Counted from the stretch's first letter, positions 22,117-55,521 are shown. The stretch: DNA of 64,000 nt from Candidatus Vogelbacteria bacterium (GCA_021414225.1 JAIOOX010000002.1:25113-89112); one strand, 5' to 3'. Numbers and translations are program-made. Notes: generated by a model not told the origin, from the letters alone.

Positions 22117-22122
22117 TGTTTG

Positions 22123-22564
22123 GATTGTTGTCGATAAGCCGAATTCTGTACCGATTTTGCCCACCACAGGGGACGCAAAATCGAGTACTCTGAGTTTATC
22201 GAAGAGTGGCCTTTCGACTAGCTCAAGGTGCTCAATTTTGTAATTACCTGCGGTGAACAAAATTGGCGATAGTTATTTATCTGGGATGAATATTACTATT
22301 CACCTCGAGCGGCACAAACCATTGGTAAACCAATGGAGTACGGCCTTGCACACACGTAAGGATTTAGCCGTTTCAGCCAAGTGTTGCCACCTGACAACTC
22401 CAGTCAGACTGGAGCCCTAGCCTTTCGGCGTTGGCGTTTCTGTTCGCACCTCGATCCTTGCGGACGACGGGTGTTACCCGCTACGCTTCCTGTTTACACA
22501 GGTATGTGTTCGGACTTTCCTCCGAGCACTATAAATAGTGCTCGGCAACTATCTGACAACAATC
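22123..22564 (-). ncRNA. rnpB: RNase P RNA (bacterial type A-like)
   Basis: On the minus strand: P1 pairing gattgttgtc / gacaacaatc at the two ends, P3 hairpin gagcactatttatagtgctc, universal P4 strands GAGGAAAGUCCGAAC (rc of 22511..22524) and ACAGAAUUCGGCUUAUC (rc of 22134..22150). The ORF-track ORFs at 22066..22260 and 22381..22581 fall inside it. Confidence 0.8.
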
Positions 22565-43027: not shown

Positions 43028-43627
43028 ATGTACATCATTGCTGGTTTAGGTAATCCCGGAGAAGAATACGATAACACTCGTCATAATATTGGCCGCGAGG
43101 TGGTGACTTTGTTGGCTAATAAAAAAGTAAAAGATTTGGAGGTGGGTGAGTGGAAGACTGATAAAAAAATACAAGCCGAAGTGGCGACTTTTGAATACGG
43201 TCAGCAAAAAGGGAAATTGGTTTTACCAAATACTTTTATGAATTTGTCGGGAAAGACAATTGGTCCACTAATTACTAGTGTTAAAAAAGCCGAGAGTTTG
43301 GTGGTGATTCACGACGATTTAGATTTACCGTTGGGGAGATTTAAAATTGGTTTTGATCGAGGGTCAGGTGGTCATAAAGGAGTGGAATCAATCATTAAAA
43401 ATATCAAGACTCGGGCTTTTGTGCGGGTGCGAGTGGGCATCTCTGGTAGTACCCCAACTGGTAAAATAAAAAAACCTCAAGGTGATGAGGCGGTTCAAGA
43501 TTTTGTGTTGGGTCAATGGAAACCAAGAGAAGAGGAAATATTAAAAAATATGAAGAAAGAAATTGTAGATAGCTTGTTGGTGTTAATGGAATCTGGCCGA
43601 GTAGTAGCGATGAATCAGTTTAATTAG
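43028..43627 (+). CDS. pth: Peptidyl-tRNA hydrolase
   Basis: MYIIAGLGNPGEEYDNTRHNIG N-terminal signature. Confidence 0.85.
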   Translation: MYIIAGLGNPGEEYDNTRHNIGREVVTLLANKKVKDLEVGEWKTDKKIQAEVATFEYGQQKGKLVLPNTFMNLSGKTIGPLITSVKKAESLVVIHDDLDLPLGRFKIGFDRGSGGHKGVESIIKNIKTRAFVRVRVGISGSTPTGKIKKPQGDEAVQDFVLGQWKPREEEILKNMKKEIVDSLLVLMESGRVVAMNQFN

Positions 43628-43668
43628 GTAAATATTTTTTTTGAGTAGTGGTATTAAAATAAAAAAGG

Positions 43669-43708
43669 AAGCCCCTAGATCCCGATTCAGGTAGATCTAA
43701 GGGGCTTT
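43669..43708 (+). terminator. Hairpin gaagcccctagatc...gatctaaggggcttt after pth
   Basis: Near-perfect 12-bp stem seen in the sequence. Confidence 0.5.
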
Positions 43709-44148
43709 GGCAGGGAGAAGGATTCCACAACAATGAAGATGTGTGGGTCTTCCCCTTCGCAAAAAGAAACCGGTCGGCAAAATGGCCAACGGCTCACTTA
43801 ATAGTAGCATCTTTTCGATTTATGTCAAGTATTTTAGGGATAAAGAAAAAGCCGGGCCCTGGTACGTGTGTACCTGGGTCCCGGTGATACATGGAGTGGG
43901 ATGATTGGCTTAGTTTCGTTCTTGGCGCCGCTTGTCATCCGGCGTCTCAAAAGGAGCCAGTCGAATACGGCGTCCCGGCGGCTTATTCCAGACCCCGTCT
44001 GGGCACGTTGGTCGGGTGAAAAAACGCCCCTCTTCCACTACTGTGATTTCTTGGCTCCGCGGGGGAGCGACTGCGGTGTTCATTACCAATAATTCCTCCT
44101 GGTTGTGGTCCGGGGAAAATTGTAACACGCCTTGGTTTGGGTGTACAG

Positions 44149-44183
44149 AAAGACCCCGCCGGACTGAAGGTCCGGCGGGGTCT
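44149..44183 (-). terminator. Intrinsic terminator aagaccccgccggac-tgaag-gtccggcggggtctt downstream of rpsA
   Basis: 15-bp perfect GC-rich stem. T-rich tail on the minus strand. Confidence 0.7.
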
Positions 44184-44199
44184 TATCTTGCCTAAAAAT

Positions 44200-45357
44200 T
44201 TATTTCACTTCTTTGATTTCTTCCAATTTTTTCTCACCAAATGACAAAGTCATTCTTTGTTCTTTTGGTTCAAACAAGTTGATCGTAAACTTGTAAGTCT
44301 TACCTAATTCTAGTTTGTTTTTCAGATCTTCATCGTTGCCGAATTCGGAAATGTGAACCAAGCCAGCCACACCTTCTTCGATGGAAACTAGAGCGCCGTG
44401 TTTGTTGTATTTGATTACAACACCAGACACAAAGTCACCTTTTTTGTATTTTTTGTCAGCTTCCATCCAAGGGTTGGTTTTAAGAGCTTTGATTGACAAA
44501 GAGATTTTATCTTCTTTGACTTCAATGATTTTTGCTTTTACTTTATCTCCCACTTTGAAACTCTCGCGAGGGTTTTCCACTAAAGCCCAGTCAATTTCTG
44601 AGATGTGGACCAAGCCTTCTAGACCCTCTTCAATTTTTAAGAAGACACCGAAATCAACTGCTCCAGTGACTTCACCTTCTACGACATCACCGAGGTTGTA
44701 ACGAGACACGATTTCTCGACGAGATTTGTTGTCAGTATTTTTCTCAGAGAAGATTAACTTGGCTTCACGAGGGTCGGCGCCAATGATTGTGACTTCAATT
44801 GGCTTACCAACAAATTTCTGTAACTCTTCCATGATTTTATCCTTGTCACCATCTTGAACTCGAGGATAATTTTCCGCTTTCAGTTGAGAGGCTGGTAAGA
44901 AGCCATCAATTCCTTGCCATTCGATAATCAAACCACCCTTATTAGCATCCTTAACAGGTAATTCGATTACAGTTTTGTGTTTGATCATCTTCTCGGCCTC
45001 GTTCCAGATCAGAGCCTGCTTGGCTTCTTTAAGAGATAACTCAATGTAACCATCTTCACCTTCGGTTTCTACTACTTTAGCTGTAACAGAGTCGCCAATG
45101 TTAACTTTTTTGATCACGTCGCGGGCATTTAGATATTCGCGACCAAAAATCAAACCAGTTCCAAATGGAGGAATGTCGATATAAAGAGTCAATTTACCTT
45201 TGGCAATAACGCGACCTTCCACTAAGCTACCTTTTTCTGGTGAACTAGGTGAATTTTTCATCACGTCATCCATTGGGCCTTTAACTATTTTTACTTCAGC
45301 TGATTCTGCAGCTTCGTCAGTTGCTTTAACAACTTTTGGTTTTTTTGTTTCAGACAT
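44200..45357 (-). CDS. rpsA: 30S ribosomal protein S1 (four S1 domains, short form)
   Basis: Repeated S1 OB-fold motifs (GDxVxGxV...G.FVxI...GLxHISE) occurring four times. 385 aa. Confidence 0.85.
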   Translation of the reverse strand: MSETKKPKVVKATDEAAESAEVKIVKGPMDDVMKNSPSSPEKGSLVEGRVIAKGKLTLYIDIPPFGTGLIFGREYLNARDVIKKVNIGDSVTAKVVETEGEDGYIELSLKEAKQALIWNEAEKMIKHKTVIELPVKDANKGGLIIEWQGIDGFLPASQLKAENYPRVQDGDKDKIMEELQKFVGKPIEVTIIGADPREAKLIFSEKNTDNKSRREIVSRYNLGDVVEGEVTGAVDFGVFLKIEEGLEGLVHISEIDWALVENPRESFKVGDKVKAKIIEVKEDKISLSIKALKTNPWMEADKKYKKGDFVSGVVIKYNKHGALVSIEEGVAGLVHISEFGNDEDLKNKLELGKTYKFTINLFEPKEQRMTLSFGEKKLEEIKEVK

Positions 45358-45746
45358 AAAAAAATAACCTTAACTCCTGCTTGCGCGGAGCCCGAGACTC
45401 ACCAGCCATTATGCTGGGCCGTACTCAGATTAATAATAAGCTAAGAATACTAAGAAAAAAGGAAAAAGTAAAGGGCTGGAAGGGGGGCCCAAGTGTTCCC
45501 CTTCCAGCCCAGGCGCCTTAGCGCAAGACAGGTGACTTCGTTCCCAGAGCGATCAGGGAATTAGTTTTCACCTGGCCCCCTTTGCAGGGGCATACGGTCT
45601 TGGTTCTGCCGTGACCGACGGAACCCTTCCCCTTACAACGTTTGCAAGGGGGCGCCTGCTGTCTCCTCACGTGGAGCCTATCTGCAGCCCACACGTAGTC
45701 TACATAATTACTTGGAAATGGCCAAGTTTTCTGTTATTATTAGAGG

Positions 45747-53260: not shown

Positions 53261-54142
53261 CTACATCTTGTATAGGTAGACAGTCACCGTGGTTTCCTTA
53301 CCATTGGTTGATTGGAACTTCAGTGTTCCGAGGTTGTTGAGATTGATGCCGTGGTTGACACCTTTCTCGGCTTGAGGGTTATCGGTGTAGGGCGCGTCCA
53401 TATATGGCCTCACCCCGTTTCCCACGACCATGACCACGTCGTGGGGATTGAACGTGACCTTGTAGTGGCTAACCACAAGAGTCACTTCCAGGTCCTTCTC
53501 GCCGGTTTTGGCCTTCATCTTGCCTTCCCCGGCGCTCGCTGTTTCGCCAATAGTCTTGGACCAGCCGGTGGCTGGTACAGAGACAGTGAACTTGGCGATG
53601 TCGTGTGCTCCCTCCGGTAACGGGCCGATCCGTTTGGGGTCGACCTTGGTTCCAGGTAGGGTGGGGAGACTCAAGTTCTGGAAAACAACCTTAGGGTCTG
53701 TTTCACCTAACCCATTAGCATTAGCTAGTGGAGTCAGAATCAACAAGAGTAACCCAGTGGTCAAGGCCGCTTTCCAGAAGCGTGACCTTCCAATCCTGAC
53801 GGCGTCTTTCTCGTAGGAGAGAAAGTACGAACCGCCAGCCATGAGAAGGACTACCATTGCGATGATGGTGTAGCCCGTGTTGGTCACGAACCACAAGAAC
53901 CAGGCTGGGAACACCCACCAGGTGGCGAAGACCACCACAGTCCAGTAGGCGACCCAGGCACCAGTTAGGAATGGATCCCACTCTGGACCTTTCGGTTTAG
54001 GGGCTGTTACGGGAGTGCCACCAGCAGTGGTTGTCCTGGGAGTTGGGCCTCCTGTAGATTTCCACATTTTTCTGACATCATCCCAGTATCGGAAGAGGGC
54101 TACTAACCCGATTCCGAGTAAGGCGATTGCTACCGAACTCAT
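53261..54142 (-). CDS. NfeD-like membrane protein (TM helices plus C-terminal beta-rich soluble domain). GC-rich foreign composition.
   Basis: 293 aa: Pro/Thr-rich linker, about four TM helices (WVAYWTVVVFATWWVF..., IIAMVVLLMAGGSYFL..., LTTGLLLLILTPL), beta-strand-rich C-terminus. Four-base overlap with the upstream SPFH-like gene. Confidence 0.35.
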   Translation of the reverse strand: MSSVAIALLGIGLVALFRYWDDVRKMWKSTGGPTPRTTTAGGTPVTAPKPKGPEWDPFLTGAWVAYWTVVVFATWWVFPAWFLWFVTNTGYTIIAMVVLLMAGGSYFLSYEKDAVRIGRSRFWKAALTTGLLLLILTPLANANGLGETDPKVVFQNLSLPTLPGTKVDPKRIGPLPEGAHDIAKFTVSVPATGWSKTIGETASAGEGKMKAKTGEKDLEVTLVVSHYKVTFNPHDVVMVVGNGVRPYMDAPYTDNPQAEKGVNHGINLNNLGTLKFQSTNGKETTVTVYLYKM

Positions 54143-55521
54143 GAAGTAGAACCTTTCTTTTTCCTCGCCGGCTTTTGAGTGGCTGGCGGAGTCGTAGGTT
54201 GAGTCTCCGGTTTTGTTTCAGAGACTTTTTTCAGGGTTTGGGCGATTTGGGTTGCTATCCCCGAGATACCCCCATCGCCGATAATGTGCACGGCATTGGG
54301 GTTGCTCAGGCCTGCCTTGGCCGCGTCAATGACAAGGGCCTCTTGGCCCGACACTCCCGTGGCGGTTTGGATTTTTTTGAGTCCAGCCGCCTCGGCAGTC
54401 ATCATTCGCAGGTGGTTGTTAGCGAGAGCTTCCCCTGCGCGTTGTGTTTCCACCCCTTTCCCAATAGACTCAGCGATTTTTTGGATCTCTGCGTTGAGGG
54501 AGTGACTGGTCAACACCTTGAAGTTTTTGACCTGAGTGAATCTCAAGCCAATCTCGTCTTCTATCAGTTTTCGCAGGGCGTTAACCGATAGTCTTTTGAT
54601 ATCTGGTCTGGTTGTGGTGGTCACCTCTTTGTAGTCTATCCTGTTCTCTGCGAGAGCTTCCAGGACATATCGGGTGACGTAGCGGCTGATAGCATCAACA
54701 TTACGTTGTGCGCGGGCCGCCGTGCCTACCTGGCAGACTGAGCGCATCCCACTTTCGATCAGGTCTCGGACGTAATTTGTGGCGTCCTCGATCGAGTCGA
54801 AAGCGATGTCAAACCGCAAGCCTTTGGTGATTTGCATTGTGTAGGACGCCGACACCTCCGCAATGACCCGGGTTTTAAGCGGGTCCTTGTATTGATCGGC
54901 TATCTCATCCTTAACTTGTCCCTTGTCTGGTTTTACCACCACTGCCGGGACGAAGTTGTATTTTTCCTCGGTGGCGGGATCTCCCAAAGTTGGAGTAATT
55001 GTCACCGTCTGACTCAGTATATCTTCTTCGTCGGCAGGATCAGCGGATTCAAACGGCACAAAAATTGGTTCTATCCAATAATCTGGTACCATCTTCCCAC
55101 TGGCATCCTTTTTCATCCCTTTTGGCTCAGAGGGTAGTGGTTGCGGATTTCCTTGGTCGTCCTTTCCCCTCCAGAGATCTTCTGGGTTGGCAGGTACTTC
55201 TCGGGTGATGATCGCTCTCGGGTAACGATTGACGGTTGTCAGTCCCCAAAATCCAGGGACGATACCAGCATCGATTGATCCGATGCGATAGCCCAGAAAT
55301 TGAAGGACCCCCACATCTTTCGCGCCGTCCACTTTGGTGTGAATGGTGCCGTAGAGACAGTAGGCAATCCACCAGATCAGTACGACGTTTCTCCAGTTGA
55401 TACTGGTGGACGTCTCATTTTGATTTTCCACCGGCAGGCCGTTAGGCATTGCCAAGTAGATGATCACAAAGATTGCTACCATAACCACGATGGACCATCC
55501 TGAATACTGACGGGTTGTCAT
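54139..55521 (-). CDS. SPFH / band-7 (stomatin/flotillin)-like membrane protein, divergent. GC-rich foreign composition.
   Basis: N-terminal TM helix, then GVLQFLGYRIGS...PGFWGLTTV resembling the SPFH core (ERFGRY...PGLxxxxPF). Long Ala/Glu/Gln-rich helical region and a basic Pro/Thr-rich tail. GC-rich third codon positions, unlike the neighbouring genes. Confidence 0.35.
   Translation of the reverse strand: MTTRQYSGWSIVVMVAIFVIIYLAMPNGLPVENQNETSTSINWRNVVLIWWIAYCLYGTIHTKVDGAKDVGVLQFLGYRIGSIDAGIVPGFWGLTTVNRYPRAIITREVPANPEDLWRGKDDQGNPQPLPSEPKGMKKDASGKMVPDYWIEPIFVPFESADPADEEDILSQTVTITPTLGDPATEEKYNFVPAVVVKPDKGQVKDEIADQYKDPLKTRVIAEVSASYTMQITKGLRFDIAFDSIEDATNYVRDLIESGMRSVCQVGTAARAQRNVDAISRYVTRYVLEALAENRIDYKEVTTTTRPDIKRLSVNALRKLIEDEIGLRFTQVKNFKVLTSHSLNAEIQKIAESIGKGVETQRAGEALANNHLRMMTAEAAGLKKIQTATGVSGQEALVIDAAKAGLSNPNAVHIIGDGGISGIATQIAQTLKKVSETKPETQPTTPPATQKPARKKKGSTS

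Follow-up and report, generated by a model that had tools for sequence, protein, structure and literature searches.

On balance, the GC-rich island that separates pth from rpsA in a Candidatus Vogelbacteria genome (GCA_021414225.1) appears to hold two tiny genes on the minus strand, one for a 57-codon protein (unit A) and one for a small RNA of about 135 nt (unit B). Each would add a new, uncharacterised member to a known kind of feature, and neither matches a known family. We analysed a 64,000-nt stretch of DNA from this genome (JAIOOX010000002.1:25113-89112), referred to below as the window, and all coordinates are counted from its first letter. In the direction of transcription, the features of the island and of the hairpins that bound it are:

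44150..44184, minus strand: intrinsic terminator hairpin of rpsA, with a 15-bp stem that is 100% complementary and a 5-nt loop; the upstream boundary of the island
44147-43840, minus strand: unit A, comprising a promoter, a Shine-Dalgarno sequence, a 57-codon ORF and its own terminator
44119..44147, minus strand: promoter-like site of unit A from a consensus scan, TGTACA, a 17-nt spacer and TG-n-TACAAT (extended -10)
44095..44100, minus strand: Shine-Dalgarno sequence AGGAGG, 11 nt upstream of the ATG at 44083
43910..44083, minus strand: 57-codon small ORF and its stop codon, MNTAVAPPRSQEITVVEEGRFFTRPTCPDGVWNKPPGRRIRLAPFETPDDKRRQERN, with the ATG at 44083 and the TAA at 43912-43910
43840..43884, minus strand: intrinsic terminator of unit A, a hairpin at 43884-43852 followed by CUUUUUCUUUAU
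43828-43656, minus strand: unit B, comprising a promoter, two hairpins and a terminator
43801..43828, minus strand: promoter-like site of unit B, TTGACA, a 16-nt spacer and (TG)-TACTAT, matching the consensus at 10 of 12 positions
43656..43795, minus strand: putative sRNA of about 135 nt, with hairpins P1 (43795-43767) and P2 (43760-43710), a linker, the terminator (43707-43668) and a U-tract (43666-43656)
43683..43692, minus strand: invariant 10-nt apical loop of the unit B terminator hairpin, ACCUGAAUCG, containing a YUNR-like CUGA

Composition, boundaries and transcription units

The G+C content of the island (43710-44148) is 52.2%, against 41.0% across the 64-kb window, and a level as high is reached by only 2.1% of windows of its length (439 nt); in 200-nt windows its GC maximum is 0.565-0.585. 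Open reading frames of 74 and 87 aa on the plus strand (43868-44092 and 43932-44195) and of 72 aa on the minus strand (43910-44128) overlap one another. A preliminary description of this DNA had noted the GC enrichment over the flanks, the three overlapping frames on both strands and several local GC stems, and all of these are present in the sequence, the frames at the sizes just given. It had also placed the island between two hairpins, and inverted repeats do flank it on each side (44150-44164/44170-44184 and 43669-43708). The former is the terminator of rpsA, which lies on the minus strand; it is situated 16 nt past the rpsA stop codon and is retained in the close relative L001 with a single change, located in the loop. 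The latter, which sits just beyond the end of the convergent pth, had been read as the pth terminator, and here the description went astray: on the minus strand the hairpin is followed by CCUUUUUUAUUUU, whereas the plus-strand sequence that follows it, UUUGGCAGGG, is no U-tract, and a U-tract is found on the minus strand only in the window and in two further lineages, L022 and L023. We therefore assign this hairpin to the minus-strand unit, as the predicted terminator of a minus-strand transcript and not as a canonical pth terminator.

Most of what follows draws on the comparison with L001 (GCA_020049755.1), the sole diverged allele of unit A; another genome, L002, does not differ from the window in sequence. 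L022 and L023 were found via pth, which is 87% and 80% identical, respectively, and the L022 contig is cut inside the rpsA-pth gap. The pth protein of the window is identical to one attributed to a Candidatus Vogelbacteria MAG, and relatives found through rpsA carry the labels of Paceibacterota or Saccharibacteria MAGs. The genes that flank the island are 94.7-98.3% identical in DNA sequence between L001 and the window, with differences that are nearly all synonymous, whereas identity across the island is only about 86%, so that whatever has been retained there is informative. Amid these diverging neighbours, L001 keeps the promoter hexamers and their spacing, the Shine-Dalgarno sequence, the ATG, the stop codon and both terminators.

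Is the island one RNA or several genes? On the minus strand, two sigma-70-like promoters with their terminators mark out two promoter-to-terminator units. Neither these promoters nor the internal terminator (the hairpin at 43884-43852 and its U-run) had been recognised in the preliminary description. Because the internal terminator and the second promoter are conserved, we reject a single continuous RNA of 430 nt. We also reject a transcript from the plus strand as unlikely, since in L001 a 2-nt deletion disrupts the spacing of the only plus-strand promoter-like site that a consensus scan finds in the island (43707-43734).

Unit A, a probable small-protein gene

Several signals of unit A have persisted while the sequence around them changed. 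In L001 the promoter hexamers and the 17-nt spacing are intact, with roughly half of the spacer bases replaced, and the counterpart of the Shine-Dalgarno sequence is GAGGAG. The bases flanking this sequence change from CCA..TGG in the window to CTAG..CTAG in L001, which preserves a small hairpin with the Shine-Dalgarno sequence in its loop. Gene callers predicted the 57-codon ORF in two independent assemblies, as P0001 (identical) and P0002 (59 aa, 87% identity), and both its start and its stop codon are conserved in L001 (n = 2 distinct sequences). The preliminary description had seen no consistent reading frame in the island; the minus-strand frame that runs from the ATG at 44083 to the stop at 43910 is nevertheless kept in the diverged L001. 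A frame conserved in a relative was also what that description had set against its own reading of the island as RNA, and unit A has one, as judged from two sequences only.

The pattern of change between the window and L001 points in the same direction. Indels within the ORF measure +9 and -3 nt, and those outside it 2, 1, 2, 3 and 2 nt. The frame of the ORF has no internal stop and, in what is one pairwise comparison, 5 changes that are synonymous and 4 that are not; the antisense frame gives 5/5, close to the ratio of the ORF because the two frames mirror each other, and it lacks start signals, while the remaining frames score worse than that of the ORF. The C-terminal 34 codons have three changes in this single pairwise comparison, all of them at third positions and synonymous. 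By a rough count, both ORF indels would fall in frame by chance with a probability of about 0.11, and the three C-terminal changes would all fall at third positions with a probability of about 0.04. The promoter hexamers, Shine-Dalgarno sequence, ATG, C-terminal codons and terminator have thus been kept amid change, which argues for purifying selection. Since this evidence comes from only two sequences, we regard the coding assignment as probable and not as proven.

The predicted RNA of unit A folds no better than its shuffles, with z = +1.0 for the window and -1.5 for L001, and this lack of excess structure is evidence against a structured RNA. Its terminator is a strong hairpin (-23.6 kcal/mol, z = -3.8) that is 100% identical in L001. 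The composition of the ORF is atypical for a native gene: GC by codon position is 0.66, 0.53 and 0.57, and the GC3 of 0.57 compares with 0.30-0.40 for host genes. The deduced 57-aa product is hydrophilic, Pro/Arg-rich and net basic (9 Arg, 2 Lys, 8 Asp/Glu and 8 Pro), without a membrane helix; its N-terminal third is variable and fast-evolving, and its C-terminal part, RPTCPDGVWNKPPGRRIRLAPFETPDDKRRQERN, is invariant.

Searches with the 57-aa product returned little beyond the protein itself. A word-indexed search of 5.8 billion clusters matched it only to itself and to the one relative at 87% identity, and it had no match in Pfam, NCBIfam, PHROGs, PADLOC or PDB sequences; a metagenome scan with peptide patterns found no relative. 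An exhaustive HMMER search of 1.84 billion representatives gave four matches, all to long tandem-repeat proteins, which we reject as artefacts whose scores add up many weak repeat matches. An AlphaFold2 model built from the two sequences is of low confidence (pLDDT 62).

We envisage that the extended -10 promoter starts a short mRNA whose AGGAGG would lie in the loop of a small hairpin, that this mRNA would be translated into the 57-aa hydrophilic, Pro/Arg-rich, basic protein, and that transcription would end at the intrinsic terminator of unit A. Unit A as a whole would then be a lineage-specific cassette of about 290 nt.

Unit B, a probable gene for a small RNA

Unit B has the properties expected of a gene for a small RNA, namely a promoter and an intrinsic terminator of its own, both conserved in relatives, and no conserved ORF. 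The hexamers and spacing of its promoter are identical in L001; L023 has TTGACA and a -10 box at matching positions, and the cut contig of L022 still includes the -10 region. Indels between the window and L001 measure 2, 3 and 2 nt and break every reading frame. The predicted RNA folds at -51 kcal/mol (z = -4.0), and the homologous units of L022 and L023 reach z = -3.9 and -3.4. Unit B also includes a conserved stretch, UUCAUUGUUGUGGAAUCC, and it is antisense to no gene.

The terminator hairpin carries the covariation. In an alignment of the terminator hairpins of the window, L022 and L023 (A6), nine pairs of the 12-bp stem vary and five have changed on both sides, with 97% of cells paired; controls with slid partners reached 19-61%, and no more than 2 of 500 shuffles attained the observed values. 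The apical loop, ACCUGAAUCG, shows zero changes across these three lineages. Covariation had been suggested in the preliminary description as a check on the island, and the support that it lends to unit B comes from the five compensatory pairs of this terminator hairpin only: P1 and P2 differ from L001 by one-sided, wobble-compatible changes and one broken pair, and they evolve fast. L022 and L023 differ from the body formed by P1 and P2 by large changes in length, and aligning them with it is difficult.

What might such an RNA act on? Pairing of unit B with the unit A mRNA, with the starts of pth, rpsA, lepB and orf63 and with the 3' end of pth gave nothing that beats shuffles, and the complement of its conserved stretch or of its loop does not occur elsewhere in the 64-kb window above chance. 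A conserved 18-mer of unit B has five matches in viral contigs, which we attribute to chance because they extend over merely 20-22 nt. We suggest that unit B is transcribed from its own strong promoter as a non-coding sRNA of about 135 nt with variable 5' hairpins, P1 and P2, and that the invariant loop is its likely contact surface, either for a target RNA, in a kissing interaction between loops, or for a protein.

Comparison with known RNAs and with intergenic surveys

Across the whole window, Rfam at gathering score finds only RNase P and 11 tRNAs, and ARAGORN finds 11 tRNAs and no tmRNA. At E <= 10, Rfam yields for the island (43600-44250) merely weak matches that are driven by the rpsA terminator hairpin.

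Three classes were considered for the island. A tmRNA combines a tRNA-like domain (acceptor stem and T-arm) with a reading frame for a tag peptide; neither ARAGORN nor Rfam (RF00023 and related models, including matches at E <= 10 in 43600-44250) reports one. The small SRP RNA is a long hairpin with a conserved domain IV, which has a GNRA tetraloop and symmetric and asymmetric loops; RF00169 has no match, either in the window at gathering score or in the island at E <= 10, and the predicted folds are separate short hairpins. The 6S RNA is an irregular hairpin of about 180 nt whose large central bubble mimics an open promoter; RF00013 has no match at E <= 10, the roughly 260 nt of unit A fold no better than shuffled sequence and unit B is predicted to form three separate hairpins. 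The island resembles these RNAs only in its size range and in being GC-rich within an AT-rich genome, and it differs from them in being split by an internal terminator and promoter and in having a largest segment without significant structure. The preliminary description had looked in vain for the hallmarks of tmRNA and SRP RNA; it had kept 6S RNA and an unusual SRP RNA as candidates, and neither finds a match in the island. Its broader proposal of a structured RNA was partly right, because part of the island resembles a non-coding RNA: the putative RNA of unit B fits it, whereas the largest and most GC-rich part, with a z-score of +1.0, does not.

A closer likeness is to regulators of the CopA, RNAI and Sok class, which recognise their partners by loop-loop contacts, using a hairpin loop that carries a YUNR/U-turn motif. 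With such sRNAs unit B shares a sigma-70-type promoter, a length of about 135 nt, two or three hairpins, a terminator with a U-tract, the lack of a conserved ORF and a conserved loop on a covarying stem. Unlike them, it has no Rfam match, is not antisense, has no target found in the window and carries its conserved loop within the terminator hairpin itself.

The island also resembles the regions collected by the Breaker laboratory pipeline, which are long, GC-rich and intergenic in AT-rich genomes (PMC11109978, PMC6429828). Most candidate regions in these surveys of GC-rich intergenic sequence proved to be ORFs (2948 of 4714), and the categories used include sORF, sRNA and terminator-stem (PMC11109978). 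Unit A probably fits the sORF definition, which includes the conservation of both the start and the stop codon, and the 3' hairpin of unit B fits that of a terminator-stem, a single strong covarying hairpin followed by at least 5 U (PMC11109978). The difference from the survey cases lies in numbers, with only two alleles of unit A and three to four of unit B here. The loop of the unit B terminator is in addition invariant, which an ordinary terminator would not require.

The rpsA-pth gap in relatives

In L023 the gap is about 230 nt long and holds the rpsA terminator, the unit B promoter, an sRNA of about 80 nt with its terminator and then pth, without unit A. Unit A (about 44127-43835) was therefore either gained in the lineage of the window and L001 or lost in L023. 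More distant relatives keep the convergent arrangement of rpsA and pth and differ in what lies between: the gap measures 0-60 nt in L005, L006 and L012, contains unrelated ORFs in L007 and L009, and extends over 580-1230 nt in L003, L004, L011 and L024, where it is filled with other mini-units on the rpsA strand, made up of a promoter and a terminator. Their arrays are:

L011, 1732-1912 and 1966-2145, rpsA strand: mini-units
L004, 4178-4985, rpsA strand: mini-unit array
L024, 4648-5700, rpsA strand: mini-unit array
L003, 2330-3226, rpsA strand: mini-unit array

The two units of L011 are paralogous and sRNA-like (z = -5.2 and -5.7), and both contain a stem, GAAGUGUC...GACACUUC, and, ahead of the terminator, a C-rich stretch, CCCUCCUCAAAGAC. 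L004 has three units, including a long hairpin RNA (z = -6.3); two of the three have a common 10-codon ORF behind a Shine-Dalgarno sequence (MRLLADPPFL and MRLYDDPVFR). L024 contributes a 148-nt unit (z = -7.6), and L003 and L024 have small ORFs of 34, 78 and 49 aa led by Shine-Dalgarno sequences. Rfam finds nothing relevant in these mini-units. Homology between unit B and the mini-units of L004 and L011 is unconvincing (34% column identity in a multiple alignment), and what we claim for unit B and the mini-units of distant relatives is a common position and architecture, not common descent.

A wider interpretation, which we put forward tentatively and think doubtful, is that in Vogelbacteria-like CPR bacteria the gap is a conserved 'nest' of tiny genes, with unit B the representative of a new family of regulators and unit A a recent GC-rich micro-protein. 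The gap would then be a site where micro-proteins and sRNAs arise, swap and vanish. The ACCUGAAUCG loop would make unit B a kissing-loop or protein-binding regulator, possibly linked to the genes for S1 and peptidyl-tRNA hydrolase, and unit A would have arisen de novo or been acquired horizontally, its promoter perhaps assembled at the insertion junction.

Alternative explanations

Against two tiny genes stands the view that unit A, or the island as a whole, is a structured non-coding RNA of a new class, and that the 57-codon ORF arises incidentally where GC-rich sequence is poor in stop codons. High GC at all three codon positions, unlike that of host genes, fits this view, as does the opening of three long overlapping ORFs together, which is expected of GC-rich sequence; the 57-aa protein is an orphan, the C-terminal half of unit A is almost invariant at the DNA level, and a sibling GC-rich island upstream of rpsA resembles a structured RNA (z = -5.3). 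We nonetheless consider it unlikely, given that the fold of unit A is no more stable than that of shuffled sequence in either allele and that even permissive Rfam searches return terminator matches only. The longest conserved frame has a specific and conserved AGGAGG at 11 nt from its ATG, indels within it are in frame where those outside are mostly not multiples of three, and an internal terminator and a second promoter divide the island. A different account, and in our view a quite improbable one, would make unit A a recent or decaying insert without function, foreign DNA or a remnant, so that only the hairpin of unit B matters, as a terminator that separates the convergent genes. Such an insert would explain why L023 lacks unit A, why the GC and GC3 of unit A are foreign to the host genome, why divergence in its N-terminal third, 5' UTR and promoter spacer far outpaces that of the flanking genes, and why the gap varies so much among relatives, from almost nothing in L005, L006 and L012 to unrelated ORFs in L007 and L009. 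It does not sit well with the selective retention of the signals of unit A, its C-terminal 34 codons and its terminator, a pattern of purifying selection, or with the conservation of the unit B promoter across four lineages (in L022 in part), which a bare terminator does not need. Moreover, searches of phage and plasmid collections with the DNA of the island gave no match, and a repeat search found no further copies of it inside the 64-kb window.

The two units could also be related functionally. In a type I toxin-antitoxin pair, a small hydrophobic membrane toxin is accompanied by an sRNA complementary to its mRNA, and here a small ORF adjoins an sRNA gene, each with its own promoter and terminator, so that the sRNA might repress the neighbouring small-protein mRNA by base pairing. 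This arrangement is the main point in favour of a similar pair, which we judge so improbable as to be nearly negligible, and we rejected this class for the island: the 57-aa protein is hydrophilic and has no membrane helix, the predicted duplex of unit B with the unit A mRNA (-56.6) does not exceed that of shuffles (-56.2 +/- 4.3), L023 has unit B without unit A, and PADLOC gives no match. We thus continue to favour a small-protein gene and a separate small RNA gene side by side on the minus strand.

Significance

The genomes of CPR/Patescibacteria, to which Candidatus Vogelbacteria belong, are tiny and have few annotated regulators, and to our knowledge little is known of their regulatory RNAs and micro-proteins. 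If confirmed, unit B would represent the first sRNA family described in Vogelbacteria, marked by an unusually clear functional signature, a covarying stem that carries an invariant loop, and unit A would exemplify micro-protein cassettes confined to one lineage. The case also counsels caution, in that a GC-rich island in an AT-rich genome is not necessarily one structured RNA; this one resolves into a probable sORF, a putative short sRNA and three terminators. The wider impact is limited because the distribution of units A and B is very narrow.

Other features of the window

A second GC-rich island (45455-45722, minus strand), with GC up to 0.605 and a similar layout, lies between the start of rpsA and a Lactamase_B_3 gene. 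It has a promoter-like site (TTGGCC-17-TAGACT), from which a transcript of about 225 nt is predicted to end at a strong terminator (45512-45470); the predicted transcript forms four hairpins (z = -5.3) and has no Rfam match. The same stretch can also be read as an ORF of 58 aa bearing a CxxCxGxG..CxCxGG motif; gene callers did not predict this ORF, and it lacks homologues. Compared with L001, its 5' end is hypervariable and includes a +9-nt indel, a 110-nt core is invariant, and four changes at the 3' side are each both synonymous and located in predicted loops. It may be a gene for a small RNA or for a small protein.

The initial ~40-90 nt past the predicted transcription start are, in both GC-rich islands, strongly diverged between the window and L001 (window 44083-43990 against L001 3211-3300, and window 45694-45650 against its L001 counterpart). 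Local divergence there reaches about 50%, as compared with 5-14% at third codon positions of the flanking genes, and each island has one 9-nt indel. Relaxed constraint, recombination or diversifying selection are possible causes of this hypervariability.

In the 5' leader of rpsA (45358-45455, minus strand), L001 matches the window at 100% identity over about 150 nt upstream of the start codon, while the neighbouring sequence varies. The leader contains the GC-rich stems GGCCCAGCAUAAUGGCUGG and CUCGGGCUCCGCG and may be an autoregulatory leader of S1.

The RNase P RNA (22119-22564, minus strand) is of bacterial type A (130 bits in Rfam), with about 100 extra nt inserted between model positions 335 and 336, close to the 3' end, and it lacks part of a helix in the P12 region relative to the Rfam consensus. 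Finally, two adjacent ORFs of 293 and 460 aa with hydrophobic N-terminal segments occupy 53261-55521 (minus strand), in a block with a GC content of 0.52-0.60, far above the genome average of 0.41, and could be foreign DNA.
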